Source: Candidatus Eiseniibacteriota bacterium (GTDB lineage Bacteria > Eisenbacteria > RBG-16-71-46). From it: DNA of 64,000 nucleotides. The translations under genes were made by a program, and so were the position numbers. The notes beneath the pieces were generated by a model. That model did no database searches. It saw only the letters and a program-made list of their open reading frames with translations, and was not told the DNA's origin. Below, piece after piece: positions 19,027 through 58,346 of this stretch (within the stretch, counting starts at the first letter, position 1; every line of letters begins with the position of its first letter). The stretch spans positions 3,929 to 67,928 of the forward strand of contig DATDEX010000286.1 of the NCBI GenBank assembly GCA_036522895.1. Reading direction: 5' to 3'.

Positions 19027-19212
19027 CCCGTGTCGCGGGGGAGCCTGGCGCGGGCCAACCCTGGGCGGAAACCACCTGTCCAACCTGTCGAGGCTGACCG
19101 TGCTTCCGCTGTCGCCCTCGGGCGCGAGGCATGGTTCACTCTCGGCCGCGAGTTCCCCAGGCGCTTCACGCAGAGGGTCGAGACGCCCATAGCGGGTCGA
19201 AGGAGGCAGACG

Positions 19213-19752: not shown

Positions 19753-20000
19753 TGTCGGGAGGCGCCCGATGTGGGGCGACTCCGCTCGTGCGAGCACGAG
19801 TTGCCGGACGCACGGGCTCGCCCTCGAGCCTGTCGCCGGGCACTTCAGTGGACGGACGCGGCGGGAAAGGGGTCATGCCGTTTCACTTGGTCGTTGACCA
19901 GGCAAATGGGACGCGCCTAGGCTCTCCGGGCGGCTGGAGCCGCATCACCCGAGATGGTCGGGCTCGGCGACGATCCGAGGACGACGATGTGGAGCACCCC

Positions 20001-22503: not shown

Positions 22504-23167
22504 CGCGCAGGTTCGCGAAATAACCGTCGGTGAACGTGTGGGACCACAGCGCGATCGCGCCGTGGGTGTCGCCCAGCTTGAGATCGTTCACGATCAGCGC
22601 GGGCTGTTCCGCGTGGTTCACGTAAAGACGCGCCCTCGTTCCCGAGACCTCGACCCGGAGGTGCGTCCACGCGCCGGTCTCCATGTCGGCGTAGGCCTCG
22701 TACGTCTCCGGCGACTCGGCCCGCAGGCGGCGAAACGAGAACATCGGGGCCGAGGTGTACTGCACGGAATGGTTTCTCCGCTGCTGGTCGTCGCAGCGCG
22801 AATTGGTCGGACGGATGTAGAGGCACTCGAACGAATCCGGGTGGGATTGAACGTGAAACGCCACGCCGATGAACCCCCGCGCGTTCGGCACCTGGGGGAT
22901 CGGCGCCCCGGCGACATCGAGCTCGATGGTGCCGTCCTTGAAATCGCTGCCGGGGACGATCGCCAGCATCGAGTCGTCATCGGCTTCGTGCCCGAGGCGC
23001 GACTGCAAGTGGACCGCGCGCTGACCCCGGTAGACCACAGTCTCGGCCCGGGCCCCCACGAGCGTGAGATCCCCGATGGGGTCGAGCCGGAGCGTGCGGC
23101 CCCTGTCTTTCGCACCCGCGGGAGCGATCGCGGCGACCAACAACATGACCACGAGCAAGACTCTCAT
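22496..23167 (-). CDS. Secreted DUF1080 / LamG-like (3-keto-disaccharide hydrolase fold) protein
   Basis: Signal peptide MRVLLVVMLLVAAIAPAGA. A jelly-roll pattern ...GFIGVAFHVQS...THLRVEVSGTRARLYVNH...GAIALW fits this family. The ORF extends to 23344; the Met at 23167 is preferred. Confidence 0.55.
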   Translation of the reverse strand: MRVLLVVMLLVAAIAPAGAKDRGRTLRLDPIGDLTLVGARAETVVYRGQRAVHLQSRLGHEADDDSMLAIVPGSDFKDGTIELDVAGAPIPQVPNARGFIGVAFHVQSHPDSFECLYIRPTNSRCDDQQRRNHSVQYTSAPMFSFRRLRAESPETYEAYADMETGAWTHLRVEVSGTRARLYVNHAEQPALIVNDLKLGDTHGAIALWSHTFTDGYFANLRVR

Positions 23168-23398
23168 GCGCGAATCATGGACACGCGACCGGAATCCGGA
23201 TATTCGGTCGGGACGAGCGCGAGCGCGGCCCGCCCAGTGCGAAGTTCTGACTTCCGAGCGCGGGCGGGCGGGGGCACCTTCTCTTCTGCCAGGGGAGGAG
23301 CCCCACGCCAGGCATGCGACAGGGGGCGGCGCAATTCCGCTCACCCATCAGCCCCAGCCTCGCGTAAACTCATGCAGCCCTTTTCGCAGGAGGTCCTC

Positions 23399-25975
23399 AT
23401 GCTGATGCCCTCGCGGCTACGCTTCGTTCTGATCGGCCTGCTTGCGCTCGCGCTCGCTTCCCCTTCTCGTGCGGCACGCTGGGTCGAGCTGTCGCCCGCC
23501 GACACGACGCGGCCGATCTCGCGTGCGGCCCACAGCGTGGTGCTCGATGCGCCTGGGCGCCGGCTCGTCGCCTGGGGCGGTCGCCTCCCCGCCGACGAGG
23601 TGTGGGCGCTTCCACTGGATGGCCCCGCGATCTGGGCGCGGCTGCGGGTGGACGGCCTGCCGCCCGCCGCGCGCTCCATCGCCTCGACCATCTTCGATCC
23701 CGTTCGCCGCCGAATGGTGGTCTTTGGCGGTGGCACGGGAGAGGGCGCGTTCCCGACCTCGAACGAGGTCTGGGCGCTCTCGCTCGATGGGACGCCTCGC
23801 TGGCGGCAGCTCGCCCCGGCCGGGACGCCACCCGACCTGCGCGAGCTGCACTGCGCCATCTACGATCCGGTGCGCGACCGCATGCTCGTGTTCGGTGGCT
23901 TCTCCACGGTGACGCCGCCGTACGGCACGTACGAGAACTCGGTCTGGGAGCTGACGCTCGGCGACCCGCCCACGTGGCGCCACCTCTTGCCCACCGGGGT
24001 GCCGCCCTCGAGCCGCGTCGGCGCCAGCATGGTCTATGACGCGGCCCATGACCGCGCGATCGTGTTCGGCGGTAACAACCCCACCGACCCGGGCGCCATG
24101 ACGTACCACGACGACGTCTTCGAGCTTAGACTCGCCGAGCCGCCGGCCTGGAGGCCGATGACCACCACCGGTACGCCGCCATCACCCCGGTACGAGCAGG
24201 CGATGGCCATGGACGATGCGCGTGGCCGGATGCTCGTGTTCGGCGGCCGTGGCTACAACGTCATCCCGCTGGCCGACACGTGGGCGCTCGACCTGAACGT
24301 CTACCCGCCGGCGTGGCGGCAAGCGGGGCCCGACGCCTCGTTCCCTCGCTACCACTCGGTCGCGATTCTGGATCCCGCGACGGACCGCCTGATCGTGGAC
24401 GGAGGCTTCGTCGGTCAAGGCGGTGGCTACTACGTCGACCAGACGATCGCGCTCTCGCTCACGGGTCAAACCGCGTGGCAGGTGCTGGATCCCGGGATTC
24501 CGCCCTCCGCGCCTGCGCGGCGCGCGTCCCCCGTACCGCTCCTGGACCCGTTCGGGCGCCAGCTCATCGTCGAGGGTGGCTATGACAACAGCACATTCGG
24601 CGCTTACGTCGGGTACGCCCAGTACGATTTCCCGAAGGACATCTGGACCTGGCCCCTGGATTCGCCTTCGCCGCGGTGGACCCGGGTATCTGCGACGCAA
24701 CCGCTGCCGTTCCTCGGCCCGGGGCGCGCCGTGCTCGATCCCGTTCGGCGCCAGCAGGTGCGCTTCTTCCAGGACGCGCTGGCTCCGAACCGCATGTCCA
24801 GCGTGGGGGTGCTGCCGCTGGACGGCTCGGCCGGCTGGACGCCCGTGATCGTGTCGGGCGTCGAGCCGCCCACCCGTCTGGATTTCTCGACCGCCTACGA
24901 TCCCGTTCGCGATCGCATCCTGCTCGCGGGCGGATACACGACCAGCTCGCGTTCCTACACACGAACCCCGCGGCGCGATGTTTGGTCGCTCTCGCTCGCG
25001 GGCACGCCCGCGTGGACGATGCTGCGCGACGACGTCCCCGGCGGGCCGGTGCTGCTGCCGGAGGCGCTGTTCTTCGATCCTGCGGCCGACCAATTCCTGG
25101 GCGTCGGCTATGCTGAGCAGGGCAAGACCGGGACCTGGTCGCTCGCGGCCGATGGTGCTTCGCCCTGGCAGTTCGTGGCGCCGCTCGGGCCGGCGTACGG
25201 GACGGTGAGCTTCGACCCCGCCGTGCGCGAGCTCGTGTCGATCGACCTCGAGGACGGCGACGCGCTGCACCACGTCCTCTCGGACACCGCCGGCTGGGTC
25301 CCTCTAGAGGTGGCTGGCGAGCCGCCACCCGGGCGGTACTACAGCCGCGTCGAGTTCGATCCATTCCATCGCCGCGTGCTCGTCTTCGGAGGGGAGGCGA
25401 GGACGGTGTCCGGGCCGCTCGGGGACCTGTGGGCGCTCGAGCTGGATCGCGCATCGCCGACGGTGAGCGTGCCGGGGCCCGATCTCGTCAGGATCAACTG
25501 GCACACCAATCTCGCGGCCGGTGCGCGGGTGAGCGCGGAGCGCCGCGACGCCGCACAGGATTGGCGCGCGTTGACGCCTCTCGCAATCGACGCGAACGGG
25601 TACGTCCGTCTCGAGGACGCCGACGTCCGGCCCGGCCTTGCGCTCGATTACCGCCTGCGTTTCAACGGTACCGTCCTGCCGGGGAGCGAGCAGCACCTCA
25701 CGGTGGCACCCCGCCCGGCGCTGGCCCTGGCAGGTGCGCGTCCGAATCCTGCCGTCGGCACGGCCTCGCTCGTGTTCACGCTCACCGGGCCATTCCCCGC
25801 GAAGCTCGAGCTGTTCGACGTCTCGGGTCGGAGCGTGGCCTCGCGGGGCGTGGGCGGGATGGGGGCCGGCGAGCACGTGCTCGCGCTCGAGCAGCGGTTA
25901 GCGCCCGGTCTCTACGTCGCCGTGCTGACGCAATCCGGCGAACGCCTGATACGAAGGTTCGTCGTCACGCGATGA
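23399..25975 (+). CDS. Secreted Kelch-repeat beta-propeller protein with T9SS C-terminal domain
   Basis: Signal peptide MPSRLRFVLIGLLALALASPSRA. At least 8 Kelch-like units (RLVAWGGR, RMVVFGGG, RMLVFGGF, RAIVFGGN, RMLVFGGRG...). CTD ending ...LYVAVLTQSGERLIRRFVVTR. The upstream part of the 22445 ORF is a shadow of the opposite-strand gene. Confidence 0.7.
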   Translation: MLMPSRLRFVLIGLLALALASPSRAARWVELSPADTTRPISRAAHSVVLDAPGRRLVAWGGRLPADEVWALPLDGPAIWARLRVDGLPPAARSIASTIFDPVRRRMVVFGGGTGEGAFPTSNEVWALSLDGTPRWRQLAPAGTPPDLRELHCAIYDPVRDRMLVFGGFSTVTPPYGTYENSVWELTLGDPPTWRHLLPTGVPPSSRVGASMVYDAAHDRAIVFGGNNPTDPGAMTYHDDVFELRLAEPPAWRPMTTTGTPPSPRYEQAMAMDDARGRMLVFGGRGYNVIPLADTWALDLNVYPPAWRQAGPDASFPRYHSVAILDPATDRLIVDGGFVGQGGGYYVDQTIALSLTGQTAWQVLDPGIPPSAPARRASPVPLLDPFGRQLIVEGGYDNSTFGAYVGYAQYDFPKDIWTWPLDSPSPRWTRVSATQPLPFLGPGRAVLDPVRRQQVRFFQDALAPNRMSSVGVLPLDGSAGWTPVIVSGVEPPTRLDFSTAYDPVRDRILLAGGYTTSSRSYTRTPRRDVWSLSLAGTPAWTMLRDDVPGGPVLLPEALFFDPAADQFLGVGYAEQGKTGTWSLAADGASPWQFVAPLGPAYGTVSFDPAVRELVSIDLEDGDALHHVLSDTAGWVPLEVAGEPPPGRYYSRVEFDPFHRRVLVFGGEARTVSGPLGDLWALELDRASPTVSVPGPDLVRINWHTNLAAGARVSAERRDAAQDWRALTPLAIDANGYVRLEDADVRPGLALDYRLRFNGTVLPGSEQHLTVAPRPALALAGARPNPAVGTASLVFTLTGPFPAKLELFDVSGRSVASRGVGGMGAGEHVLALEQRLAPGLYVAVLTQSGERLIRRFVVTR

Positions 25976-26041: not shown

Positions 26042-26704
26042 TCACGCAGGCGGGGACTGGTCCCCTCTCGCGTAGAGTTCCACCACCCAGGTCGCGTTGC
26101 CGCTGCGTGCGACGCGTCGCAGGGAGGCGCGCTCGAGCACGGCCGCGATGCGTGCGGGCGGGTGGACGAAGCTCCGGAACGCGTTGCGCGTGATCCGCCG
26201 CCACAGGTTCTCGAGCGCGATCGCCCAGCGCACGTACCAGCGGTCCCGTGGGTAGCTCAGCGCGAGCAGCCGCCGCGTGCAGCCCGCAGCGCGCACGAGC
26301 AGCGACTCGAAATCGGGATAGCAGCACACCACGCGATCGAGCGTGACCACGTCGGCCGGCTCGGGAGGGGTCACGAGCGCGGCGAAGTCCCCGGCGAGAA
26401 GGACGGCGCGCTCCGCCCAGCCGCGCTCCCCGAACTGGCGCCTGGCCACCGCCAGGTAGGCGGGTGAGGCGTCCACCTCGACGACCCCGCCGAACCCCGC
26501 GGCCAGTAGCTCGAGCCCGAGCACGCCGATCCCGCCGCCCACGTCGAGCAGGTGCGCCCCCTCGAGCGGCCGGCGGCGCAACTCCTCGAGGATCAACCGC
26601 GTCGTCGGCTTCGGCCCCTTCTTGCGGTAGCTCCGGAGATCCGATTCCGCCACCTTGGGGCCGAAGAGCTCACCCGTCGCGGCACAGTGGGCGCAGCAGT
26701 CCAC
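26042..26704 (-). CDS. Class I SAM-dependent methyltransferase
   Basis: Motif I LLDVGGGIGVLGLEL and an acidic post-I residue (VVEVDAS). N-terminal Cys cluster MDCCAHCA. Confidence 0.7.
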   Translation of the reverse strand: MDCCAHCAATGELFGPKVAESDLRSYRKKGPKPTTRLILEELRRRPLEGAHLLDVGGGIGVLGLELLAAGFGGVVEVDASPAYLAVARRQFGERGWAERAVLLAGDFAALVTPPEPADVVTLDRVVCCYPDFESLLVRAAGCTRRLLALSYPRDRWYVRWAIALENLWRRITRNAFRSFVHPPARIAAVLERASLRRVARSGNATWVVELYARGDQSPPA

Positions 26705-26788
26705 GTGATCTCCCTCCTTGCTTTACTGCGTGCACGCGAGCGGTCGGTCGAGCGCGATTCCGGCGCGCGACCTGGCGACGGACGATCG

Positions 26789-27304
26789 CTACGATCGGCG
26801 CTGCGCTCGCGCCTCGTCCTCGGCGGTGGGGCCTCGTGTCGTGCGGTCGATCTGCCGGATGGCACCCATGTGGTAGGCGAAGTGCACGACGCTGCCCGCG
26901 AGCCACCCGGCCTCGACGTCGCTCACCTCTCGCGGGGTGCGGAGGACGACCGCCCAGGCGTGCGCTTCGCGACGGAGCTCGTCGAGCAGCTTCCGCCACT
27001 CCGAGTCCGACACGACGTTCTTCCGCCAACTCGCCGTCCAGTCCATGTCCGGCCAGGGCGGCGGCGAGCCGCTCGCCCACCGGTTGAGCAGCGATAGCCC
27101 ATAGCGGAGGTGATCGACGTGCGCCGCGATCGACGAGCCGTCATGCGCGGCGGAGGCCGCAGCGGCAGGCAGCCGCTCGAGCGCCGCGAGCAGCCCTCCG
27201 TCGCCCTGGTTGAGCACGTAGGTGCGCCCGCTCGAGTCCGACGAGCCGTCGGCGAGCTCGCTCCAGAGGGTCAGCAGGAGAGGGGCGAAGGGTCCAGTAT
27301 CCAT
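26789..27304 (-). CDS. DinB/YfiT-like four-helix-bundle protein
   Basis: The conserved His pattern (AAHVDHLRYGL ... VVHFAYHMGAIRQ) fits the DinB_2/DUF664 family. 171 aa. Confidence 0.5.
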   Translation of the reverse strand: MDTGPFAPLLLTLWSELADGSSDSSGRTYVLNQGDGGLLAALERLPAAAASAAHDGSSIAAHVDHLRYGLSLLNRWASGSPPPWPDMDWTASWRKNVVSDSEWRKLLDELRREAHAWAVVLRTPREVSDVEAGWLAGSVVHFAYHMGAIRQIDRTTRGPTAEDEARAQRRS

Positions 27305-30775: not shown

Positions 30776-32965
30776 CTACGGCGCCACGACGGCGTGCGGC
30801 CGGTACGGCACGTCCAGCTCCGAGAAGATGAACGAGTAGATGTCGGCGTACTCCTCGTTTCGCGCATTGAGCGGAGTGCCCACGTGGCCGGTCGTCATGC
30901 TCGTGCGGAGCAGCACGGGGCGCGTGGTCCCGCTGGCCTGGAGCCGGGCCGCGAACTTGAACGAGTTGCTTGGGGCGACGCGCGGGTCGTTGACCCCGGT
31001 GAGGAGCAACGTCGAGGGATACCTCGTGCCGTCGTGCACGTGGTGGTACGGGGAGTAGGCGAGGAGCGCCCGGAACTGGGCCGAATCGCGCACCGTGCCG
31101 TACTCGGTCGTGTTGAAGAGCCCGTTCGGGCTCAGCTCCGATCGCAGCATGTCGTAGACGCCGACCTGCGACACCACGACGCGGGGGAGGTTCGGGTGCT
31201 GCGTGAGCTCGGCGCCCATCAGCAGGCCGCCATTGCTCCCACCCATGATGGCCAGGCGATCGGTCGACGTGTAGCGCCGGTCCACGAGCGCCTGCGCGCA
31301 GGCGGCGAAGTCGTCGAACACGTTCTGCTTGGCCAGGAGCTTGCCCGCCTCGTGCCATGCGTCGCCGTACTCGCGGCCGCCGCGGATGTGCGCCACCGCG
31401 TAGATGCCGCCCTGCTCGATCCAGAGCATGCGGCGGGCCTCGAAATTGGGCTTCATGCTGATGCCGTAGCCGCCGTAGCCGTAGAGGAGGAGCGGTGCCT
31501 TGCCGTCGAGCGCCACGCCCTTCCTGACCAGGATGCTCACTGGAACACGCGTGCCATCGCGGGACGTGACGAATTCGCGCCTCACTTCCACGCCCGAGAA
31601 GTCGGCGGGGGACTTGAGCGCGAGCGCCGTCGGCGCAATCGTGTTCGCGGCCGGGTCGTACCGGAGCCAGCGCCCCGGCTCGGTGTAGCTCTCGCTCCGA
31701 ACGAGGCACTGCTCGCCCTCGTAGCGCGCGAAGCCGTCGACCGAGCTCACGGGCGGAAGCGGCATCTTGCCGAGCGGCTTGCCGTCGAGCGCGAACACGC
31801 GCATCTCGTTCGGGCCGCCCTCGATGTCCTCGACGTAGAGCCGGGTGCCGGCCACGTGGATGGCGTCGATCGCGGTTTCGCTGGCGGGCACGATGGAACG
31901 GGCGTGCTCGAGCGCGGGCTCGCCGAGCGGCACGCGGAGCACCTCGCCGTTGGCGTTGGCCGCGCGCGAGAGCAGGAACAGCCCGTCGCCACCGAACTCC
32001 GCGGCCACCACCCGGTCTTTGAAGCCCGCCACTGCTTTCAGCGCGCCATCGGGGCCGCGCAGCCACCAACCGATCTCGCCGCCGTCTCCGTTTCGCACCA
32101 GGATGCACACGTAGCGCCCGTCATCCGAGCTCTCGAACGCGATCTCCGCGATCTTGGGGAGCTCGCGGCCGAGCAGGTACGTGTCGTCCGAACGCGGCGT
32201 GCCCAGCTTGTGGAACCAGGCCTGCTGGTAGAAGTCGAGATCCCCGGCGGGTCGCTCGCCGGCCGCGGGGTAGCGCGTGTAGAGGAGTCCCGAGCCGTCC
32301 GTCGTCCACGCCACGCTCCCGCCGGCGGTTCCGCCGTTCACGCGCGGCAGCACGTCGGGCTGCTCGCGCCCGGTCGCCACTTCGAAGACGTGCACGTCCC
32401 CGGACTCCGTTCCGCCCTTGGAGAGCGAGACCGCGACCTTGGATCCGTCGAGCGACGGCACGAGGAAGTCGATCGTCACGGCGCCCGTGGGGTCCATGGC
32501 GTTCGGGTTCACGATCACCCGCTCGCGGGAGAGGTCGTCGACCGACGCGAGCGCCACCAGCATCGGCTGGTTCTTCGGGGGCTGGTCCTTCAGCGCGAAG
32601 AGGGTTCCGCCCCGGTATTCGAGCGCGGTGTAATTGGGCGCGATGCTGCGCGAGAGCTCGGCCACGCGGTCGCGGATCGCGGTGCGGGAGGGAAGCTTGT
32701 CGAGCACGCCACGGGTGTAGGCGTTCTGGGCCGCCACCCACGGCTTGAGCGAGGGGTCGCGCCAGTCCTCCATCCACTGGTAGTCGTCGCGAACGGTCGT
32801 TCCGAAGTAGCGGTGCTCGACCGAACGCTTCGTGGCCGCGGGCGGCCTGGGTGGCGCGCTCGCGGCCCGAGCGGACGCGGTGACGAAGTCCGAGACGAGC
32901 GACGCCACCAGGGCGATAACAACGGCCGCGGCGGCGACTCGGGCGATACGCTGCTGGCGTTCCAT
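30776..32965 (-). CDS. Prolyl oligopeptidase (S9A) family serine peptidase
   Basis: N-terminal DDYQWMEDWRDP...WVAAQNAYT (POP N-terminus). Catalytic-serine signature GGSNGGLL. C-terminal His region. Signal-anchor-like N-terminus. Start taken at MERQQR (32965); the ORF extends to 33292. Confidence 0.8.
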   Translation of the reverse strand: MERQQRIARVAAAAVVIALVASLVSDFVTASARAASAPPRPPAATKRSVEHRYFGTTVRDDYQWMEDWRDPSLKPWVAAQNAYTRGVLDKLPSRTAIRDRVAELSRSIAPNYTALEYRGGTLFALKDQPPKNQPMLVALASVDDLSRERVIVNPNAMDPTGAVTIDFLVPSLDGSKVAVSLSKGGTESGDVHVFEVATGREQPDVLPRVNGGTAGGSVAWTTDGSGLLYTRYPAAGERPAGDLDFYQQAWFHKLGTPRSDDTYLLGRELPKIAEIAFESSDDGRYVCILVRNGDGGEIGWWLRGPDGALKAVAGFKDRVVAAEFGGDGLFLLSRAANANGEVLRVPLGEPALEHARSIVPASETAIDAIHVAGTRLYVEDIEGGPNEMRVFALDGKPLGKMPLPPVSSVDGFARYEGEQCLVRSESYTEPGRWLRYDPAANTIAPTALALKSPADFSGVEVRREFVTSRDGTRVPVSILVRKGVALDGKAPLLLYGYGGYGISMKPNFEARRMLWIEQGGIYAVAHIRGGREYGDAWHEAGKLLAKQNVFDDFAACAQALVDRRYTSTDRLAIMGGSNGGLLMGAELTQHPNLPRVVVSQVGVYDMLRSELSPNGLFNTTEYGTVRDSAQFRALLAYSPYHHVHDGTRYPSTLLLTGVNDPRVAPSNSFKFAARLQASGTTRPVLLRTSMTTGHVGTPLNARNEEYADIYSFIFSELDVPYRPHAVVAP

Positions 32966-33107
32966 GGAATCCTCCTCGTGCCGGCCTGACGGGCGCCCTG
33001 GTGCGTGGAGAGCACGAGCGTAGCACGCGTGTCCGCGCCGCGGGGACTCGGCAGGATTGAACCGCACCGGCTTTTCGGGGGCCTCCGTTCTTTGAGAGGA
33101 TGGGGTC

Positions 33108-34958
33108 ATGGCACGAACCGGCAGGGTCCCGCTCGAAGCGAGTCGATCGAGCGCGCGGGGGACTGCTCGGGGGCCGCAGCGACTCGACCGCTCCGCCCGC
33201 TCGTGGATGTTCGAAGTAGCCTGCGCCCTCGCCCTGATCCTCGGCATCACCGGCGCCCTCCGGCTCGCGTGGCTTTGTGACGATGCGTACATCTCGTTTC
33301 GTTACGCCGACAACCTGGTGCACGGGCTCGGCCTCGTCTACAACGCCGGCGAGCGTGTCGAGGGGTATTCGAACTTCCTCTGGACAATGGGCATCGCACT
33401 GGGAATGCGGCTCGGCGTGGGTCCGGAGGCGTGGACGGTGGCATGGGGCGTGGTCTTCTTTGCGGCCACCATCGCACTGCTCTGCGCACACGGCGTGCTG
33501 GCGGGGAAGGGGCGAGGTCGCGTAGCGCTCGGGCTGCCACTGGCCGGGCTCCTCGCGGCCGTTCACCGCGACTGGTACGTCTACGCGACGAGCGGGCTCG
33601 AGACCTCGTGCTTCACCTTTCTCGTCACGCTCGCCTACGTGCTGGCGGTAGCACCCGCGGCCCCCGCGTGGTCGGCGGGGTTGGCGCTCGCGCTCGCCGC
33701 ACTCACCCGGCCCGACGGCATCGTGTTCGTGCCCTTCTTCATGTTGTACATGGTGCTGGCGAGGCCGCGCAGAATGCGGTCCGGCCTCGAATGTGCCGGG
33801 GCCTTTCTCACGCTCTGGCTGTTGTACGTGGCCTGGAAGATCCACTACTACGGGGACTTCTTCCCCAACACGTACTACGCCAAGTCGGCCTCACTCGCCT
33901 GGTGGAGCCAGGGTTGGCTCTACGTTCGGCTCTACTTCGAGAAGTACTGGGTGCTCGCACTGGCGATCCCGCTCGTGATCGCGGCCTGGATCCCGACGCG
34001 CGGGGCGGGGAACGCACGCGCCGTCCAGGCGGCCGCTCGGCGGTCCGACGCCGTCCCGGACCCGACGGCCGGAACGGAACCGTCCTTCAGGGCGACCGTG
34101 TTCGCCGCGGCCCTGGCCATCGGTTTCACGCTCTACGTGATGCGCGTGGGCGGGGATTTCATGTATGCGCGGATGCTGATCCCCGCGACGCCGTTCTACC
34201 TCCTCGTGCTCGACTCGGCGGCCGCACGACTCCTCGCTGGAAGACCTCGCCTCGAACTCGCATTGGCAGCGTGCCTCATGGCAGCGCTCGCCCTCACACC
34301 TGATTGGTCCACCGGCAAGGACTCGCAGGCCGGGATCGTGAACGAGCGCGAGTTCTACAGGCCCGAGGAGGTCGAGATCCGACGCGCGCAGGGAGTGGCA
34401 CTCCGGCGCTATTTCGAGGGGTTGCCGGTGCGCATCGCGATCATCGGCTCGCAGGCGAGTCTTGCCTACCTGGCGCGACCCGCCGTCGCGATCGAGGCCC
34501 AGACGGGACTCACGGATCACTGGATCGCACACCAGCCTCTCGCGCGGCGAGGACGCGTCGGGCACGAGAAGCTTGCACCGGTCTCGTACCTGCTCTCGCG
34601 CAAGGTGGACTTCGTGATCCATCACTTCTCGACCGTGAGCCTTCAGCTGAGTCGTAGCGTACCGCTGGTGCCCATCGACTTCGACCGGATTCCGGGCTAC
34701 ATGGTCCACTGGAACCCACCGCTCCTCGCCGAGCTGGCGAGGCGCGGGGCGCGCTTCGTGGACTTTCCCTCGGCACTCGACGATCGAAGGGCGGATTTCG
34801 CCCGCCTCCCGGCGGACTCACTCGCGTTCGAGTACGCGCGGATCAAGGCCTTCTATTTTGATTGGGTCCCTGACTCCTTGCGAGAGGCGCGATTCACGAA
34901 GGGGGAGGTTGGGCGGGCAGGGATGGCCTCGGCTCCGGGGTCACAGGGCTTCCACTAG
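33108..34958 (+). CDS. Polytopic membrane protein, possible GT-C family glycosyltransferase
   Basis: N-terminal CDDAYISFRYADNL...GERVEGYSNFLW in the first periplasmic loop, followed by at least 10 TM helices and a C-terminal soluble domain. Confidence 0.45.
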   Translation: MARTGRVPLEASRSSARGTARGPQRLDRSARSWMFEVACALALILGITGALRLAWLCDDAYISFRYADNLVHGLGLVYNAGERVEGYSNFLWTMGIALGMRLGVGPEAWTVAWGVVFFAATIALLCAHGVLAGKGRGRVALGLPLAGLLAAVHRDWYVYATSGLETSCFTFLVTLAYVLAVAPAAPAWSAGLALALAALTRPDGIVFVPFFMLYMVLARPRRMRSGLECAGAFLTLWLLYVAWKIHYYGDFFPNTYYAKSASLAWWSQGWLYVRLYFEKYWVLALAIPLVIAAWIPTRGAGNARAVQAAARRSDAVPDPTAGTEPSFRATVFAAALAIGFTLYVMRVGGDFMYARMLIPATPFYLLVLDSAAARLLAGRPRLELALAACLMAALALTPDWSTGKDSQAGIVNEREFYRPEEVEIRRAQGVALRRYFEGLPVRIAIIGSQASLAYLARPAVAIEAQTGLTDHWIAHQPLARRGRVGHEKLAPVSYLLSRKVDFVIHHFSTVSLQLSRSVPLVPIDFDRIPGYMVHWNPPLLAELARRGARFVDFPSALDDRRADFARLPADSLAFEYARIKAFYFDWVPDSLREARFTKGEVGRAGMASAPGSQGFH

Positions 34959-35048: not shown

Positions 35049-36638
35049 GTGAACGCCTTCATGCAATCGAAAGAGTGTGGCGGCGACATGTTCTTCGGGT
35101 CGTGTGACGGAGCATCAGCACAGTCGACGCGCGGGGACGAACCCGCGATTCGCTCGAGCGCACGGCACGTCGTTGTTGCGTCGGTGTCGCTCTGGGCCGT
35201 GGTCGTCGCCGCCAGCCCCGGTGTCGTGCTCGGGCAGGGCGGCGAGCCGGTCTTCCACGTGGACTCCGAGATCCATCCCACGTATTCGGTATTCCACGAT
35301 CCGGACGGCAATGTGTCGGTGAAGGAGTTCGCATTCTTCAATAATGTCGTATCCCTGTCGGACACCACGTTCACGCCGGACACGATGATCGTGTCGCTCC
35401 GATTGCGCGAGCTATTCCACTTCGTCTATCAGCGTAGCGGGGGCACGCACATCGCCGAGACCACGTTCGGGCATGCGTGGTCGCCGGACCTGCTGCACTG
35501 GCTGGTGGACACTCTCGCGTTCGCGGTGGACACGACGTGGTGGAATCGCCGCCACGTGTGGTCGCCCAGCCTGATCGAGGCGAACGGACGCACGTACCTC
35601 TTCTATACCGGGGTGGACGAGCACGAGGACCAGCGCATCGGCTACGTGTCCACGGCGGTCCTCGACACCTCGGAAACGGTGTGGGATCCGCCGCGCGTCA
35701 TGGTGTGGGAGGCGGAGAGCACCGGATGGGCTGTGCCCAACCCGCCGATCTACAGCGGTCAAACGCAGTTCCGCGACGCCTATGTGATGCACGACCCCGA
35801 ACAGGCCGGTTGCCTGCTCATGTACTTCGACGCCCACGATTCCGTGGACACTAACCTTGGCCGTGGCGGGCTGGTGGTGGGAGTCGCACGCAGCGATCCC
35901 GGCAGCGTAGACACTTGGCACGACCTCGGATACTTCCCGACGACACTCCGGAGCGTCACGAACGTCCCCCAGCTGGAAGGACCCCACATCTTCCCGGTGA
36001 ACGGCACCGACAGCGGATGGCGGCTGATGTTCTCGAACGCGGGTTCGCCGCCCGGCGAGAATGGCGGGACCACGATCCGCTTCATCGCACTCGCCCCGGG
36101 GGAGAGCCCTGCGGACACCACGGCCGCCCATTGGAGCGCGCCGGTGATCCTCCGGGACTACCTGAATGGCCTGCCGACGACGACGGGTTGGAGCGGCAGC
36201 GAGGAATTGCACGTTTCGGGTGCCGACTACCTCGGCGGATTCACCGCGTGGTCGGTCGGCGCGACGGGCATCGCGTTTACGCGCGTGATCTGGAACGGCA
36301 GCGACTTTACGCTCGCCGCACCCAGCGTCACCTCGGTGGATGAGTACCACTCGCGCACGCGCGGCCTGACGCTCCGCCTGGTGGATTGGAGCCCACACAC
36401 ACGGCGGGTGAGGTTCCAGATCGATTCACCGCTCGGGTTGGCGGCGAAGCTCGAGGTGTTCGACGCGCAGGGCCGACGCATCGCAACGCCGTTCGACGGC
36501 GAAGTCGCCGTCGGGCGTACCCGGGTGATGTGGGACCTGACCGCGCGTGATGCCACGCGCGTGCCGAGTGGAGTCTACTTCGGGCAATTGCGCTTCGCCG
36601 GGGGCGAGCGCACGGTGCGGATCGTCGTGGCGAGATAG
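35049..36638 (+). CDS. Secreted five-bladed beta-propeller glycoside hydrolase-like protein (GH43/32/68 clan) with T9SS C-terminal domain
   Basis: WSPSLIEANGRTYLFYTG, FRDAYVMHD and FDAH..D motifs resemble the GH-J/F propeller. CTD ending ...VYFGQLRFAGGERTVRIVVAR. Confidence 0.5.
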   Translation: MNAFMQSKECGGDMFFGSCDGASAQSTRGDEPAIRSSARHVVVASVSLWAVVVAASPGVVLGQGGEPVFHVDSEIHPTYSVFHDPDGNVSVKEFAFFNNVVSLSDTTFTPDTMIVSLRLRELFHFVYQRSGGTHIAETTFGHAWSPDLLHWLVDTLAFAVDTTWWNRRHVWSPSLIEANGRTYLFYTGVDEHEDQRIGYVSTAVLDTSETVWDPPRVMVWEAESTGWAVPNPPIYSGQTQFRDAYVMHDPEQAGCLLMYFDAHDSVDTNLGRGGLVVGVARSDPGSVDTWHDLGYFPTTLRSVTNVPQLEGPHIFPVNGTDSGWRLMFSNAGSPPGENGGTTIRFIALAPGESPADTTAAHWSAPVILRDYLNGLPTTTGWSGSEELHVSGADYLGGFTAWSVGATGIAFTRVIWNGSDFTLAAPSVTSVDEYHSRTRGLTLRLVDWSPHTRRVRFQIDSPLGLAAKLEVFDAQGRRIATPFDGEVAVGRTRVMWDLTARDATRVPSGVYFGQLRFAGGERTVRIVVAR

Positions 36639-36715: not shown

Positions 36716-37414
36716 CTATGCGTCTGCGTTGCGCGGGTTCGCGCCGATGAACGCCAGCCACAACACGACGATGAACTCTCCGAAGTAGAACGGCATGGCC
36801 AGTTTGCGGACCGTCGCGACATACTCTGGAAAAGCGAACCCGGCAACGCAAGAGAGTACGTACGCGATGCCCGAGATAATGAGGAGTACGCCGAGGAATT
36901 TCGGCAGGAAGCCGGACTTGATCGTCAATGTCGCGAATGGGAAAAGCCACAGACCCCAGAGCGCCGTCAGCATCTCGCCCTGCCTTCCAGCCAGACTGAA
37001 GGATGCGTACGACAGCGCCTCCAGCTGTGGTCTGCTGATGGCGGACGAGTATTCCGCACCGCTCAAGAGCACGAGAGGCGTGGCATTCAACACGAAGCCC
37101 GCGAATTGCGCGGCAATGCCGGTTCCAACCAGCGCAACCATGACTCGGGCCTGGTTCGGATCCACGTCCTTGAAAAGGCGGTAGAGCGCGAGCACGACCA
37201 GAATGAAGAGGATCTGCACGACCAGGGCGATCAGCATGCTGAGTCGGTAGAGTCGCTCGTTTGCGAGTATGTTTCGCGCGGTCGCCGCGGGGTCTCCCGA
37301 GACGAAAAAGAGGCGGTGAACGTAGAAGTAACCGATGATCGCCAGGATGGACATCGCGAGATAGAGCAGCCCGGCTTGTCTGGCGCTGCGTCTGATTTCG
37401 GTCGCAGACGGCAT
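36716..37414 (-). CDS. DUF4386-family membrane protein
   Basis: N-terminus RQAGLLYLAMSILAIIGYFYV..NERLYRLSMLIALVVQIL and 5-6 TM helices typical of DUF4386. Confidence 0.5.
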   Translation of the reverse strand: MPSATEIRRSARQAGLLYLAMSILAIIGYFYVHRLFFVSGDPAATARNILANERLYRLSMLIALVVQILFILVVLALYRLFKDVDPNQARVMVALVGTGIAAQFAGFVLNATPLVLLSGAEYSSAISRPQLEALSYASFSLAGRQGEMLTALWGLWLFPFATLTIKSGFLPKFLGVLLIISGIAYVLSCVAGFAFPEYVATVRKLAMPFYFGEFIVVLWLAFIGANPRNADA

Positions 37415-37439
37415 CGAAGGCCCTCCTCGGCGTTCGGGT

Positions 37440-39440
37440 GTGCTGCCACTACGCCACGGCCAGGTGCATTGTTTCCGGACCTCGGGACCCTCGACGACCG
37501 TTGGGGGCGTGCGGGCACCGGACGCTACTACGAATGGAGCACACGCGTCCTGCTCCCTGAAGCTGTCAAAGGGGTGGGCGTGCGCTCGACCCTGCGTCGG
37601 CTGGAGCCGACGGGATGCCGGATCCAGCGTCGTGCATCATCGAGGCTGGCGGCCGCCGGTCTCGGCAGCTCACTGGCGTGCGGAGGGTACGTCGCGGAAG
37701 GCGAGGTTTCGAAACCTGCGAGGAGGGTGGGCTACAGCGTGGGCTCTCGCCGCGATCGCGGTCATCGCGATTGGAGGCACGACGAGCCGGGCGGAATCTG
37801 TTGCGGCCGCGGTCGATTCCTCGGCGGTCGCCTCCAGCGGATGGCCTGGCGTGAACCCGCAGTTGATCGCGGCGGCCGCCGAGGTGTGGGCCATCCTGGC
37901 GCGCCCCGACAACCCGGTCTGGCCCGGATGGGATGCCTCGAACACGCCGCTCCTCCTGTACCTGCCCGGCCGGCAGGATCTGCTCATCAACCATCCCCAC
38001 CCGCCCGCGGGGTTCCACCCCTACACGGGTGGGGTGCGCGTGCCCGGCGCGGGCATGATGGTGCGCGACGGCGCGACGCTCATCACGTCCGATGGCCAGA
38101 ACACCTCCGCGGACGTCGCGGGTGTACCGACCCTGGTGGTCGCCGACCCGCTGTCGACGCTGCGCCAGCGCGTGGCGACGCTCATCGAGGACCCGCGCTC
38201 CGCGAGCGACAAGGTGCGCGGTCTCGAGTTCGACGACTTGCTGGAGGACCCGTACGTGAAGATGGCGACGGTCGCGCACGAGGCCTTCCATGTGTACCAG
38301 GGCCGTGTGGCCCCGAACCGGTCGAACGAGATGCTGTTGCTCTAATACCCGGTGCTGTCGGTGGAGAACAACGTCGGGTTCGGGCTCGAAGCCTCCGCCC
38401 TGGCCGCCGCAATCGCCGCGCCCGACGAAGGGGCGCTTCGCGCGGCGGCGCTGCGCTGGCTGGCCGTGCGGCTGGACCGCCGCCGAGGGCTTCCGGCGCG
38501 CGCGATCTAGTACGAGGATGGCACGGAGTTCACCGAGGGGCTTGCGAAGTACGTCGAGTATCGGCTGTTCCAGGTTCTCGAGGGGCGCCCCGCCGGCCCC
38601 ATGCTCGCCGGGATGCAAGGGTTCCAGGGCTTCGCGGATCTTCGCCCGCAGCGCGAACGACTCGTGCGCGAGATGGTTCGAAATCTGCGCGGTGAGGTGA
38701 TCGTGAACAATGATCCCTGCGGCACGGCACCGCTCCGCTTCCGGCTCTACTACTCCGGCATGGCGATCGGCGTGCTGCTGGATCGCCTCGCGCCCGGGTG
38801 GCACCACGACATCATCGTCGCCGACACCTCACTCACGGCGCTGCTCCGCGACGCGCTGCGGCCGACGGACACGGAACTGGTCGCGGCGTTGGCCACCGCC
38901 CGTGCGGATACGGGCGTGGCCATGCTGCGCGCCGCGAAGACGCGGCTGGCCGAGGAGGGTCGCACGCGCATCCTCGGGAAGCTCGCGGCTCTCGAATCGG
39001 GGCCCGGCACGCGCTTGATCGTGGATTACTCGGCCCTGGGCACGCCCGGGGTCGCCCTCTCGTTCACGCCGTTCGGTATCACGGTCGTGGACTCGGTGCG
39101 CACGTTTCTTCGAGCAGCTGCCGATTCAGGTCACCTTCCCGGACGGCTCCCGGCTCAAGGAGTCGTTCGCGCTGCCCGTGCTGCGCGATACCCACCGGCG
39201 CGAGATCTCGTGCCGGCTGGCCAGGACTGTCACACCGGCGGATGTGGAGCGAAGTCTCGGTGGGAGCATGGGCCGGGGCGCAACGCCCCGCCCGGATCGC
39301 TGAGCGGCCTTCGGGGATACACTGCTTCGACACGCTCCCAGCTCGTCGCCTTCGTGGAAGTCCCCATCGCTGCGACGTCCACTCCGCATTGGGCCCCACT
39401 GCTGGGTGCGACCGCGGCCGAAACGGCGAACCTATCGTAG
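37440..39440 (+). pseudogene. Secreted HEXXH zinc-metallopeptidase-like gene interrupted by two in-frame stop codons
   Basis: A single reading frame is maintained for about 2 kb. HEAFHVYQ lies at about 38270. An in-frame TAA sits at 38343-38345 and an in-frame TAG at 38508-38510; both are followed by TAC. Coding-like sequence continues through both stops and resumes as the 38601-39440 ORF. The 5' start is uncertain. Confidence 0.5.
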
Positions 39441-40739
39441 AACGAGCAATCGCGTGGTCGACGAAGTGTGCGCGGGGCTGCGCGTCCGGGCCAGATAGAG
39501 CCCGGGCTGCCAGCGCGCGGTCTCGAGCACGATGTCTCGCACGTCGCTCGTGGGCGGCGTTCGCACCCGCCGGCCCAGCGCATCGAAGAGCTCGAAGCTG
39601 CCGCCACCCTCCGGCAGGTGAACGTGGAGGACCGAGCCAATCCGCGCTGGATTCGGGGCGAACTCGGGAGCCGCGAGGCGCGCGGGCTCCAACTCGCTGA
39701 CGGCGAGCACGGGCAACGCCCGGCGGTAGACCTCACCCCAATCGTTGACCGTGTAGAGGTCGTTGTCGTGCCGGGCCAACACGCGGTACGAAAGGGGCGG
39801 GGCCTGGTTGAGCGACGTGGAGCAGTCGGTCCAGTCGTTGCCCGAATCCATCGAGACCATACAGCCGCGGCTCGTGATCGCATCGTGCGCCGCGAAAAGT
39901 ACGCCGGAATCGTCGCCGATGATCGCGGTGAAGGCCGTGCCGCCCGTGGCGCTGACGTCCCCGGTCGTCCATGTGCCGCCCCCGTCGACGGACCGCGCGA
40001 TCCCGTGCAACATCCCGACGACGACTCTTCCACCGCTCCCGATCCACAGGTCGCGCTGCCAGTAGCGTCCGGAAGCCGTCGGTCCCGGTAGGACGGATCT
40101 CGTCCACACCGAGCCGCCCGGCGCCAGCGTGTAGAGCGAATACGGACTCGACGCCACGTCGTCGCCCTCGAGCGCGAAGAGCTCGCCATCAGGGCCGAGA
40201 CCGATTTCCCCGAGCCTCGCCGTCGTGTCCGCGCCGAGGGCGAACCGCTGCCACGTGATCCCATCGTCCTGGGAGCGGTAGATCCCCGACGCCGGCGTCG
40301 AGACGCCACCGCACAGCGAGTAGAGATCGCCGCCGGGCGCGACGAGCAACGACGTCGGGCAGGCGAAGTAGCCCACGGGTGGCGTGCAGATCCGCCATGT
40401 GACGCCATGATCCAGCGAGAGCGCCAGCTCGGGATTCGGGGAGTTCACGCCCAGCAGCATGCGACCGCCGGATCCGATCGCGAGATCGTAGGCGACGGGC
40501 GCGAAGAAGGGGTCGCTGACGGAATCGGCCCGAACGACGGTCCAGGTGACGCCGCTGTTCGTGGAACGACGCAGTCCGCGATCCCCGCAGCAGTAGAGCG
40601 TCCCATCCAAGTCGGCCACCAGGCAGGTGGCGTGCTGCACCGTGTTGCCGACCTTCACCCAGACCTGGGCTCCGCATGAGGTCCAGGCGAGCGCATGCAG
40701 GAGCGCGGCGCAGATGAGGCTTCCGGGCAGGTGACGCAT
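39432..40739 (-). CDS. Secreted BNR/Asp-box (Ycf48/sialidase-like) beta-propeller protein with T9SS C-terminal domain
   Basis: Signal peptide MRHLPGSLICAALLHALAWTSCGAQ. Repeated SxDxGxTW boxes (STNSGVTWTV, SLDHGVTWRI, SQDDGITWQR, SVDGGGTWTT, SMDSGNDWTD). CTD ending ...LYLARTRSPAHTSSTTRLLVLR. Confidence 0.6.
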   Translation of the reverse strand: MRHLPGSLICAALLHALAWTSCGAQVWVKVGNTVQHATCLVADLDGTLYCCGDRGLRRSTNSGVTWTVVRADSVSDPFFAPVAYDLAIGSGGRMLLGVNSPNPELALSLDHGVTWRICTPPVGYFACPTSLLVAPGGDLYSLCGGVSTPASGIYRSQDDGITWQRFALGADTTARLGEIGLGPDGELFALEGDDVASSPYSLYTLAPGGSVWTRSVLPGPTASGRYWQRDLWIGSGGRVVVGMLHGIARSVDGGGTWTTGDVSATGGTAFTAIIGDDSGVLFAAHDAITSRGCMVSMDSGNDWTDCSTSLNQAPPLSYRVLARHDNDLYTVNDWGEVYRRALPVLAVSELEPARLAAPEFAPNPARIGSVLHVHLPEGGGSFELFDALGRRVRTPPTSDVRDIVLETARWQPGLYLARTRSPAHTSSTTRLLVLR

Positions 40740-40977: not shown

Positions 40978-43557
40978 TCATCGCAGCATCGCGAGCGCGC
41001 GAGTGAACGTCCCGGCCGGGGTCGCGAGGCGAACCAGGTAGAGCCCCGGCGGAAGCGGGCCGACCTCCGCCCGCCCGCTCCAGGATGCTTGGTAGCGCCC
41101 CGGCTCGTGCCGTCCCTTCGCCAGCGTCGCCACGCGGCGACCGGCCACGTCGAACACCGAGAGCGTGAGGTCGGCGGGCTGGGCGACGGCGAACTCGATC
41201 ACGGTGGCGCCACCGGTGGGGTTGGGTTGCGGTGGGTCGAGATTCCACTCGAGCCGCGCGCCGGCCGCCGCCGTCGTGGGGGACGCGAGGCTCGGAGGTT
41301 CGCCCGGCCGGCCATGTCGCTTCGATCGCGCACCCCACACCAGCGCGCGGACGTCGTTCCTGGGAGGGGTGTAGTAGTCGTCCCCTCCGAACACGATGAT
41401 CTGGTCGCGTCCCGGGTCGTAGACCAGCGTGTGGCCCGCGCGCCCGCTCGGCACTCCGCTCGAGAAGGCGAGCGGAACCCAGCTCAGGCTGTCCGAGAGC
41501 TCGAGGGCCCACACGTCATAGTAATATGGGCTTATGCCCGGCCCGCGATAATCGGTGCTCTCCCCGGAAAACACCACGATCCGGTCGCGCACCGGGTCAT
41601 AGGCCTCGCTGATCCGCCATCGTGGCAGCGGGGGCGCCCCGGCGGGCGAGAGTCGGGTCCAGTTCGGGGTCCCCGACAGCGCGAGGGCCCAGACCGCGCT
41701 CTCCCAGTTCCGTTCCGCGTTGTTCCAGTCCGCTTCGTACACCAGCATCCGGTCCCGCACCGGGTCATAGACCGCGGACCCTGCTTGACCGGTTGGCTGG
41801 GGTCCGGTGGGGAGGAGCTGGGTCCAGGCGGGGATCCCCGTGAGCGAGAGCGACCATACGTCGTTATAAAGAGACCAGGGAGGCGCGGGTTCACCTCCCC
41901 CGAAGACCAGCATGCGCCGGCGCAGGGGATCGTAAACCGCCACGTGCCCCGCGCGCGCGGGCGGCGCCGGGCCCGTGACGGAGAGTCGGGTCCAGGTCGG
42001 GGTACCCGCCAGTGAGAGCGTCCACAAATCACCATCGAGAGAGTACGGCGGATCCCACGCGCCTCCCCCGAACATCACCATGCGCTGGCCCGCCGGATCG
42101 TAGATCGCCGTGTGCCCAAGGCGCGCGACCGGCGCCGTCCCCGCAACCGCGAGCTGGCTCCAGGTCGGGCTCTCACCCAGCGAGAGGGCCCACACGGCGT
42201 TGCTCGAGGTGCCGCCGAACACCACCATCTGGTCGCGTATCGGATCGACGATCGCCGTGTGTTCCTCGCGGCCGGGGGGCAGCGTGCCGAGCCCGCCGGA
42301 GGGAAAGAGATGACTCCAGGCCAGATCGCCCCGGAGCGAGAGAACCCATACGTCGGAACCACTCCCATCATTCCCGCCGAAGACGAACATCTGCCGCCGC
42401 ACGGGGTCGTACACCGCGCTATGCAACGAGCGCTCGCCGGGCGGCGTGCCCGATGGCGAAAGCCTGGTCCAGGTCGGCGGGTCCGACAGCGCAAGCGCCC
42501 ACACCTCGGACCCGGCAAAGAACCCCCCGAAGACCAGCACCCGGTCGCCCGTGGGGTCGTAGACGGCGGTGTGCGCCTCCCGCGCACCCGGCGGTGTGCC
42601 CGAGGGCGAGAGCTGGGTCCAGGTGGGATTCCCCGCAAGCGTGAGCGCCCAAACGTCGATCAAGTCCGACGCGAACCCCAACCCCAGGGGATACCCCCCC
42701 AGCACTATCATCCGGCGGCGGACCGGGTCGTAAACAGCCGCCTGTCCGACCCGGGCGGCGGGCGGCGTGCCGGAAGGGGAGAGCTGGGTCCATGTCGCGG
42801 GCTCCGCGAGCGACAGCGCCCAGACGTCGTCACGCATGCCTTCGCAGTAGTCGGTATCCCAGTACCCACCGAACACCACCATCCGGTCTCCGACCGGGTC
42901 GTAGATCGCGCTGTGACCTTCACGCCCGCACGGCGGTGAGCCCGACGGTGAGATCGGGGTCCAGCTCGAGCCGCCCGAAAGGGGGAGCGCCGAAACGTCG
43001 TTCAAGTAATACTGGTAATCGTCGGGTTCGCGGCATTCACCCCCGAACATCACCATACGGTCCCGCACCGGGTCGTAGATCGCCGACTCGCCAAGGCGTC
43101 CGGTGGTCCCACAGAACCCGAACGACGGGGCGATCAACCGCCAGGACGGATGCCCCGAGAGCGAAAGGGCCCAGGTCTCCTCGTAGCCGCCATCCCCGCC
43201 GTGGACCACCATCTGGTCGTGTCGGCGGTCGTAGATCGCCACGTGGCCGGCGTGTCCACCCAGGCCCAGGGGCAGCCCATCGCCAACGGCATCGGCGCCA
43301 GCCCCCGGGGCGGCATGTTCGGTTTCGCGGGAGGATGCCACGCCCGGCGGTCTTGACTCCGCTATCCGCCGCCAGAGCTCCCGTTGCCAGGGCGGCACCC
43401 GAAGGTCTCTCGCCGTGGCGATCGGTGGAAGTCCGGTTTCATGGCCGACCGTACCTTGGACGGGATCCGCGGCGGCGTCGCTCGTGAGCGCCGCGCGAAC
43501 GAGAACGGAGAGGGAGGCCAGGCAAGCGGCCCGAACCAGCGCGGGACGTCGGCGCAT
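40978..43557 (-). CDS. Secreted Kelch-repeat beta-propeller protein (at least 12 repeats) with T9SS C-terminal domain
   Basis: Signal peptide MRRRPALVRAACLASLSVLVRAALT. Many (S/A)AIYDPVxDRM(V/L)VFGG units. CTD ending ...LYLVRLATPAGTFTRALAMLR. The ORF extends to 43848; the Met at 43557 is preferred. Confidence 0.7.
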   Translation of the reverse strand: MRRRPALVRAACLASLSVLVRAALTSDAAADPVQGTVGHETGLPPIATARDLRVPPWQRELWRRIAESRPPGVASSRETEHAAPGAGADAVGDGLPLGLGGHAGHVAIYDRRHDQMVVHGGDGGYEETWALSLSGHPSWRLIAPSFGFCGTTGRLGESAIYDPVRDRMVMFGGECREPDDYQYYLNDVSALPLSGGSSWTPISPSGSPPCGREGHSAIYDPVGDRMVVFGGYWDTDYCEGMRDDVWALSLAEPATWTQLSPSGTPPAARVGQAAVYDPVRRRMIVLGGYPLGLGFASDLIDVWALTLAGNPTWTQLSPSGTPPGAREAHTAVYDPTGDRVLVFGGFFAGSEVWALALSDPPTWTRLSPSGTPPGERSLHSAVYDPVRRQMFVFGGNDGSGSDVWVLSLRGDLAWSHLFPSGGLGTLPPGREEHTAIVDPIRDQMVVFGGTSSNAVWALSLGESPTWSQLAVAGTAPVARLGHTAIYDPAGQRMVMFGGGAWDPPYSLDGDLWTLSLAGTPTWTRLSVTGPAPPARAGHVAVYDPLRRRMLVFGGGEPAPPWSLYNDVWSLSLTGIPAWTQLLPTGPQPTGQAGSAVYDPVRDRMLVYEADWNNAERNWESAVWALALSGTPNWTRLSPAGAPPLPRWRISEAYDPVRDRIVVFSGESTDYRGPGISPYYYDVWALELSDSLSWVPLAFSSGVPSGRAGHTLVYDPGRDQIIVFGGDDYYTPPRNDVRALVWGARSKRHGRPGEPPSLASPTTAAAGARLEWNLDPPQPNPTGGATVIEFAVAQPADLTLSVFDVAGRRVATLAKGRHEPGRYQASWSGRAEVGPLPPGLYLVRLATPAGTFTRALAMLR

Positions 43558-44009
43558 CACGAAGCTCCTCTTGGGAACTGCGTCGAGCCGGGGAAGAATG
43601 CCTGTTGCTTGCCCCGGGACTCGACCGTCCGTGGCTGCCGCTCGAGGCGGCCGCACCGCTGGTCTCGACTCTAGAAGCGTCGCTCGAGGCGGCCAACGGC
43701 GCGATGCCCTGATCTTGCATGCAGGCGTTTCACGGAGGCAGCGAGGGGCGCCCTGCCCAGCGGAGCAACGGTTCGACACGCCGGGGATGACCACGGCCCA
43801 CGCGTCGTCGGGGCTCAGGTAATTCACCGAGCCCCATCGACTCGGCAATGCGAAATGAATCTTGAGTCGGACGCGCGCTTCGGCCTAGTGTGAATTCCGG
43901 AACGCGCGACGTCGGGAACGAGGTCACGTTCGGCGTCGCGCACCCGGACCCGGCCGCTCGTTCACATGATGCGAGATGATGGCTGCGGGATCATGACGCG
44001 AGCGAGACG

Positions 44010-58330: not shown

Positions 58331-58346
58331 AGCTCTGCGGTCGCGC

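Follow-up and report, generated by a model that had tools for sequence, protein, structure and literature searches.

The segment 37716-39294 of the window (the whole 64-kb stretch of DNA analysed here, with a G+C content of 68.8%) is very probably a genuine pseudogene with several lesions, fixed in a natural population, and represents the relic of a secreted HExxH protein of about 560 aa with a gluzincin-like fold. Its host is an uncultured soil bacterium that is placed in Candidatus Eisenbacteria at NCBI. No fewer than four lesions, each of them disabling and independent of the others, are present in the relic, which is an ordinary multi-lesion pseudogene. In a preliminary description of this DNA, a pseudogene with two nonsense mutations and no indels was among the explanations offered for a metallopeptidase gene interrupted by stops; the pseudogene part of that proposal has stood, but the gene is more decayed than was seen then, since one base has been inserted and the 3' end is truncated as well. 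The oldest lesion lies at 39294/5, where the last ~37 codons have been lost or replaced. Three others are specific to the window lineage, namely a nonsense mutation of TAC to TAA at 38343, another of CAG to TAG at 38508, and the insertion of one T at 39105. The first translatable product would end 17 residues past the HExxH motif, before the helix with the expected third zinc ligand, so that no active enzyme would be made from it.

The main value of this diagnosis lies in annotation. In public records the relic is split into HEY6195618.1 and HEY6195620.1 (NCBI) and into JGI calls of 164, 52 and 279 aa, all of them hypothetical proteins, with a 110-residue out-of-frame tail within the 279-aa call. 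These split pieces should be one pseudogene.

Reading frame and lesions of the relic

One frame was originally described as open and coding-like from about 37440 to 39440, without frameshift and broken only by two in-frame stops. Both stops, each followed by TAC, are present in the sequence, in the frame where position mod 3 = 0 (Table 1), and a codon-usage Viterbi analysis of the whole window places them within strongly coding sequence, a situation met with only at this locus. The same analysis draws the limits of the gene differently. The stretch 37370-37745 is non-coding, and with it the described 37440-37745; 37746-39105 is coding with both stops inside; and coding then continues in the +1 frame from 39105/6. 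The extra T at 39105 moves the true frame, contrary to the claim of no frameshift, and the frame followed earlier is out-of-frame junk at 39106-39440, where it stays open because the DNA is 69% G+C. Long open frames mean little here, as spurious overlapping ORFs of 660 aa (+) and 413 aa (-) in the same region illustrate. The HExxH motif that had been reported was found again, as HEAFH at 38277-38291, and so was the signal-peptide-like N-terminus, which is hydrophobic and, as judged by eye only, Sec-like (WATAWALAAIAVIAIGG...SRA/ES; …WATAWALAAIAVIAIGGTTSRAES…). At the 5' end, CTG 37716 stands where the nearest relative has its ATG, and the sole canonical in-frame start upstream is GTG 37632, which is in frame and could serve as a start for the relic despite CTG 37716.

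Homologs were collected with the repaired conceptual translation as query, in protein searches at E ≤ 0.001. The 478 homologs obtained are nearly all 540-590 aa long, unnamed or "hypothetical" and without Pfam domain, and together they span all pieces of the relic. That the three ORF pieces are one protein, as first suggested, was borne out by full-length homologs of ~560 aa that align over every piece. The closest intact relatives (~540-560 aa) are 86, 84 and 82% identical to the repaired protein; no intact allele of more than 86% identity was found in searches of 5.8 billion protein clusters, and the best match among GTDB representative genomes is 69% identical. Alignment of DNA and protein was taken to the three closest loci. 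The column of stop 1 holds Tyr in these three and Y, H, Q, F or W across the family, that of stop 2 holds Gln in the three, and each column lies directly before an invariant Tyr. The idea that TAC had become TAA or TAG at both sites is therefore right for stop 1, which replaced Tyr, but not for stop 2, which replaced Gln (CAG to TAG).

Around the insertion, four related loci read ACG-TTCTTCGAG where the window has ACGTTTCTTCGAG, and past 39105 the family sequence FFEQLPIQVTFPDGSRLKESFALPVLRDTHRREISCRL runs on in the +1 frame to end at TGA 39301-39303. Nucleotide homology stops abruptly at 39294/5, two codons before this TGA, and the relatives carry ~37 more conserved residues. When the intact homolog P0001 was compared with the window by tblastn, frame 3 covered its residues 20-465 and frame 1 its residues 464-526; for the last 37 (527-563) no match was obtained anywhere in the window, and no paralog of the relic was found in the window by the same search. 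Scans for repeats, promoters and terminators at the locus showed no insertion sequence, flanking repeats or terminator that would account for the 3' breakpoint.

Table 1. Features of the relic, with the state of each variable site in the window and in sister strain L081
Feature	Position	Strand	Description	Window	L081
Remnant segment 1	37716..38342	+	Signal-peptide-like N-terminus, beta subdomain, active-site helix with HEAFH
Premature stop 1	38343..38345	+	Ancestral Tyr; TAT, TAC and TAC in the three nearest relatives	TAA (stop)	TAC (ancestral Tyr)
Remnant segment 2 (YPVLSVENNVGFGLE...ARAI)	38346..38507	+	First codon is the family-invariant Tyr
First codon of segment 2	38346..38348	+	Family-invariant Tyr	TAC	TAG (stop, at invariant Tyr)
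Premature stop 2	38508..38510	+	Ancestral Gln; CAG, CAA and CAG in the three nearest relatives	TAG (stop)	CAG (ancestral Gln)
Remnant segment 3	38511..39104	+	YEDGTEFTEGLAKY helix (38511-38552) with candidate third zinc ligand, helical domain, start of C-terminal beta domain
Tyr codon of LAKY	38550..38552	+		TAC (Tyr)	TAG (stop)
1-bp insertion, one T of TTT 39105-39107	39105	+	Without counterpart in three relatives and sister strain	Extra T	No insertion
Remnant segment 4, shifted frame (FFEQLPIQVTFPDGSRLKESFALPVLRDTHRREISCRL...PRP)	39106..39294	+	Matches P0001 residues 464-526
3' breakpoint and unrelated spacer	39295..39431	.	Junction and downstream sequence common to sister strain

Sister strain, order of lesions and constraint

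A comparison with sister genomes had been proposed for this locus, and it became possible through a cluster look-up followed by contig retrieval, which yielded strain L081 as a JGI contig of 1,213 nt, ~98.4% identical to window 38325-39538. The sister strain has the same 3' truncation, including the junction and the downstream sequence of the window, and other point lesions (Table 1). Being common to the window and L081, the truncation is older than the strain split and the oldest lesion. The direction of every change was confirmed by polarising with three outgroups, and, as the aligned sequences indicate, the nonsense and frameshift lesions would have arisen independently in the two lineages after the split. 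The point lesions of the sister strain are known from this single 1.2-kb contig, to which some credibility is lent by the L081 SNP 38539 G>C, which recurs in an ENA contig of independent origin. Two assemblies are interrupted at ~38198-38246 and show SNPs at 38197 and 38209, which suggests that both strains co-occur in some samples.

Outside its lesions the relic looks like a working gene. At the 137 sites with a conservation of at least 95% among 111 homologs it departs nowhere, compared with a median of 2 departures in intact members, and its lineage-specific changes (37 synonymous, 32 nonsynonymous) fall within the range of three intact relatives, so that neither the 137 conserved sites nor the N/S counts (32/37) gave any indication of relaxed constraint outside the lesions. 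Since the remaining sequence is constrained, inactivation would be recent relative to the branch length. This constraint limits the age of the pseudogene and leaves the diagnosis standing; the pattern is consistent with a very recent inactivation. Like other multi-lesion bacterial pseudogenes, the relic belongs to a family that is intact elsewhere, has several independent disabling lesions and is annotated as separate hypothetical proteins. Moreover, its lesions differ between close strains, as is also described for the arginine decarboxylase genes of Chlamydia trachomatis (PMC2720952). It is unlike the known cases in that its host is free-living, uncultured and from soil rather than a host-restricted pathogen, and in that disabling hits exceed expectation relative to missense changes, with a preference for Tyr codons that is taken up below.

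Alternative explanations

Error in the data was one of the earlier explanations for the stops, and in its full form it would hold that stops and insertion alike are sequencing, base-calling or assembly errors in a gene that is intact in the organism. Some homologs of the family in long-read MAGs do have frameshifts, possibly errors, but for the relic this explanation deserves next to no credence, as it is effectively refuted by concordant independent assemblies. The exact third ORF of 279 aa, with its junk tail, and the DUF4386 neighbour were each found in 23 contigs by exact protein look-up. The source assemblies comprise ENA ERZ923663, ERZ923664 and ERZ923675 (runs ERR1044072, ERR1044071 and ERR1041384), with ENA ERZ27262784, several JGI samples, Logan and an NCBI TPA MAG as further sources. 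Identical lesions are therefore present in contigs from at least three different sequencing runs and from different pipelines (MEGAHIT-style k127 and k141 contig names, JGI assemblies, the NCBI TPA MAG). Over 37400-39460 (2,061 bp) four distinct full-length contigs agree with the window at every base (100% identity), a fifth has one SNP, and the 12.8-kb flanks are 99.95-100% identical between contigs. When JGI metagenome_contigs were scanned for the exact pattern spanning stop 1, no match was returned, though the exact protein look-up gave JGI contigs. Random sequencing error is excluded because the same sequence with all lesions occurs in several runs and pipelines. The alternative bases of the sister strain at the lesion sites mean that both readings of these sites are possible, which also argues against an artefact, and base-calling error could not yield the 3' truncation. 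Furthermore, the other 36 genes of the 64-kb window are intact, and no other broken gene was found in it by in-frame-stop scan, Viterbi track and Pfam. Of the sites flagged by the stop scan, 38343 alone lies in a genuine coding frame and the four others lie in antisense frames of real genes, and internal stops with a same-strand frame switch and no gene boundary are confined to 37746-39210 in the Viterbi track of the whole window. Two further segments that were considered as broken genes proved by Pfam to be two genes each, a methyltransferase adjoining a DinB-like gene at 26042-27304 (-) and an ECF sigma factor adjoining a Ser/Thr kinase at 57602-60992 (+). The same gene set bears on a reassignment of TAA and/or TAG as sense codons in this organism, for which nothing speaks beyond the two in-frame stops themselves. 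The 36 other confident genes end at TGA (22), TAG (13) or TAA (1), no other coding segment has TAA or TAG in frame, and the frameshift and truncation would be left unexplained. As all three stops terminate other genes of the window, reassignment is out, its likelihood being practically nil, and the earlier judgement that a global change of code was unlikely can be endorsed.

Translation through the lesions has also to be considered. It would make the locus a leaky "pseudo-pseudogene", in which UAA and UAG are read by near-cognate Tyr and Gln tRNAs and a base is occasionally skipped at TTT-C, to give small quantities of a nearly wild-type protein, shortened at its C-terminus, that would still be of use. 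In both strains together, each of the four nonsense codons took the place of a Tyr or Gln codon, so that readthrough could restore the ancestral residue; in yeast, UAA and UAG are read through by insertion of Gln, Tyr or Lys (PMC4150775), and the remaining sequence looks constrained. However, a single mutational step separates Tyr and Gln codons from TAA and TAG anyway. In Salmonella, low-level translation through stops and frameshifts is reported for 101 of 161 pseudogenes (PMC9122581), and the relic is similar to these in having UAA, UAG and a single-base frameshift in a well-preserved ORF. It differs in that it is known from sequence alone, that T and not C follows the stops (C is the commonest adjacent base in Salmonella readthrough, according to that study), that its lesions differ between strains, and that the conserved C-terminus is deleted, with loss of its conserved strands. 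In addition, one mRNA would need three separate low-efficiency events, and the scans for repeats and terminators at the locus found no notable element. Neither the stop sites nor the shift site is conserved, as all relatives and the sister strain lack the extra T and have a sense codon at either window stop, each strain having its own stops. A leaky gene is accordingly quite improbable, and the site-specific readthrough that had been kept as a less likely option has no support.

The pseudogene itself shows one feature that plain neutral decay does not predict, namely an excess of nonsense changes. Random point mutations in the CDS of the relic give a stop in 2.4-3.2% of cases, but nonsense accounts for 4 of the 15 substitutions between the window and L081 (P ≈ 4e-4 to 1e-3), a share ~10x the prediction and concentrated on TAC codons. 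The count from the sister strain only, which is free of the ascertainment behind the preliminary description, gives P ≈ 0.02-0.03. In three of the four cases the nonsense change is a C>A or C>G that struck a TAC codon (P ≈ 0.005-0.03). Chance, selected silencing and mutational bias are all possible candidates for this excess. In the case of selected silencing, the product left after the truncation would have been harmful or wasteful, for example as a misfolding secreted protein, and nonsense mutations would have been positively selected independently in each strain. The nonsense excess is in keeping with such an adaptive knock-out, as are the location of each lineage's first stop in adjacent codons just past the HExxH helix and the truncation, which is common to both strains and therefore older. 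There is also a precedent for independent loss of one gene in sister strains, the arginine decarboxylase of Chlamydia trachomatis being inactivated in parallel (PMC2720952). However, the numbers are small, the sister evidence is one short contig, a second stop downstream of the first gains nothing, and the TAC third-base transversions hint at a mutational rather than a selective cause. Adaptive knock-out is thus unlikely, and it would refine the pseudogene reading rather than replace it. A similarly doubtful status applies to the fuller proposition that the relic reflects parallel selected silencing rather than passive decay: a rearrangement would have deprived a secreted gluzincin-like protein of its C-terminal strands, each strain would then have gained its first stop in one of two neighbouring Tyr codons, and selection or a TAC mutational bias would be the cause. 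For the multi-lesion pseudogene, the nonsense excess and the adjacent-codon parallelism amount to a small population-genetic curiosity and not to a new mechanism.

Among the sequences related to the relic, the 'SRC' variant fragments P0155, P0157, P0161 and P0162 were left out as evidence; P0155 is not linked to any recorded contig. By eye, the end of P0157 resembles a translated sequencing adapter, which suggests that there are low-quality assemblies among the 'SRC' variants.

The intact protein family

The relic was first described as a gluzincin metallopeptidase, and this assignment holds at the level of motif and fold but not of sequence match, since no significant match to Pfam, NCBIfam or PDB sequences was obtained with the repaired protein or with intact homologs. 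Foldseek against PDB gave nothing significant. An AlphaFold2 model of intact P0001, built from 111 sequences, has a pLDDT of 92.4 and a pTM of 0.88, and comprises a signal peptide, a small beta subdomain, a helix at 179-198, a helix at 261-288, a helical domain and a C-terminal beta domain at 432-554, of which the truncation removes the last three strands (525-554). HEAFH lies in helix 179-198, where H188, E189, F191 and H192 are invariant among 111 homologs and A190 is at least 90% conserved. Helix 261-288 holds YEDGxEFxEGLAKY, with the invariant residues E267, E271 and E274, which are candidates for the third zinc ligand. Tested for the thermolysin-like catalytic fold, the predicted structure was found to have it. 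The intact family is probably gluzincin-like and of clan MA, a peptidase function being predicted from motif and modelled fold. Like the gluzincins of this clan (M1 aminopeptidases, thermolysin M4, M32, M61), it has HExxH on a long helix after a beta subdomain and invariant Glu residues on a later helix, the one with YEDGxEFxEGLAKY. In contrast to them, its candidate Glu helix is ~80 residues past HExxH, a helical domain and a beta domain at the C-terminus come in addition, its activity is a prediction, and, as stated above, the searches of Pfam, NCBIfam and PDB sequences and the Foldseek comparison gave nothing significant. A widespread family without a curated model, with at least 478 database matches, is thereby brought to light, and its genome matches are in MAGs of Eisenbacteria, Krumholzibacteriota, Acidobacteriota, Gemmatimonadota, Planctomycetota, Armatimonadota and others.

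Sequence differences within the relic and between sister strains

At the adjacent Tyr codons 38343-38348, a different nonsense mutation is found in each of the two sister strains: the pair reads TAA-TAC in the window and TAC-TAG in the sister-strain contig L081 (19-24), which carries a second TAC-to-TAG change at 38550-52. Of the 15 substitutions that distinguish the strains, 4 are nonsense changes, and 3 of these affect TAC codons. Contigs L074, L079 and L080, from independent assemblies, end within the relic, at ~38198-38246 (region 38197-38246), and two SNPs lie close to the end of L074 (G>A at 38197, A>C at 38209). Together, these breaks and SNPs suggest that both strain types are present together in samples ERZ923675 and JGI 3300039463.

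At the 5' end of the relic (37615-37716), a database fragment from a low-quality source (P0162, 97% identical) joins ATG 37615 to the gene; in the window, this ATG is out of frame with it. The fusion implies a difference of ~14 nt around 37690-37705, located between the near-repeats GCGGAGG and GCGGAAGG. The window lineage may have undergone an additional 5' frameshift, or alternatively the P0162 variant may carry a deletion.

Family copies and gene context in other genomes

Split or frameshifted copies of the HExxH family are also found in other lineages (see table), some of them from long-read MAGs, in which indel errors are plausible, and others from short-read contigs; the family may have been lost repeatedly. 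In the contig of a relative, the intact P0003 gene lies immediately upstream of a gene for an Agd3-like deacetylase (CBM87_Agd3, Agd3_CE) and a GT4/PelG exopolysaccharide cluster. Near the family gene, several relatives have DUF4386 and GH32 genes, whose order and orientation are rearranged.

Features of the window and of family copies elsewhere
Feature	Location or protein	Strand	Remark
Large secreted proteins	9622-14205	-	
	19749-21842	+	
	22445-25975	+	Kelch
	35049-36638	+	
	39432-40739	-	
	40978-43848	-	
S9 peptidase	30776-33292	-	annotation of identical public contig
DNA polymerase-like ORF region	16696-19752	+	
Kinase and sigma factor	57602-60992	+	
Family copy	L060:10001-11601 (CAWJVO010000008.1)		2 frame changes, 2 stops
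Split family copies	P0142/P0154, P0150/P0173, P0153		
Family fragments	P0148, P0167, P0168		on long contigs
P0003 context	L001:11811-20052		

Other genes of the window

Many large secreted proteins are encoded around the relic, including two Peptidase_C25 (gingipain-like), two Kelch beta-propeller, one BNR and one GH32-like type. Most show a C-terminal match of the FlgD_ig or Por_Secre_tail type, the exceptions being the Kelch protein at 22445-25975 and the BNR protein.

A family-B DNA polymerase-like ORF of 776 aa (RNase_H_2 and DNA_pol_B domains) ends at TGA 19024-26. One codon further, a 240-aa ORF that matches no Pfam family begins in frame with it, at GTG 19030. At their junction the coding potential is lower, and the two ORFs may be one interrupted gene or two genes. 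Elsewhere, a gene for an ECF sigma factor of the Sigma70_ECF family overlaps the open frame of a Ser/Thr kinase of 948 aa that contains TPR repeats; the two appear to form a pair of sigma factor and kinase genes.
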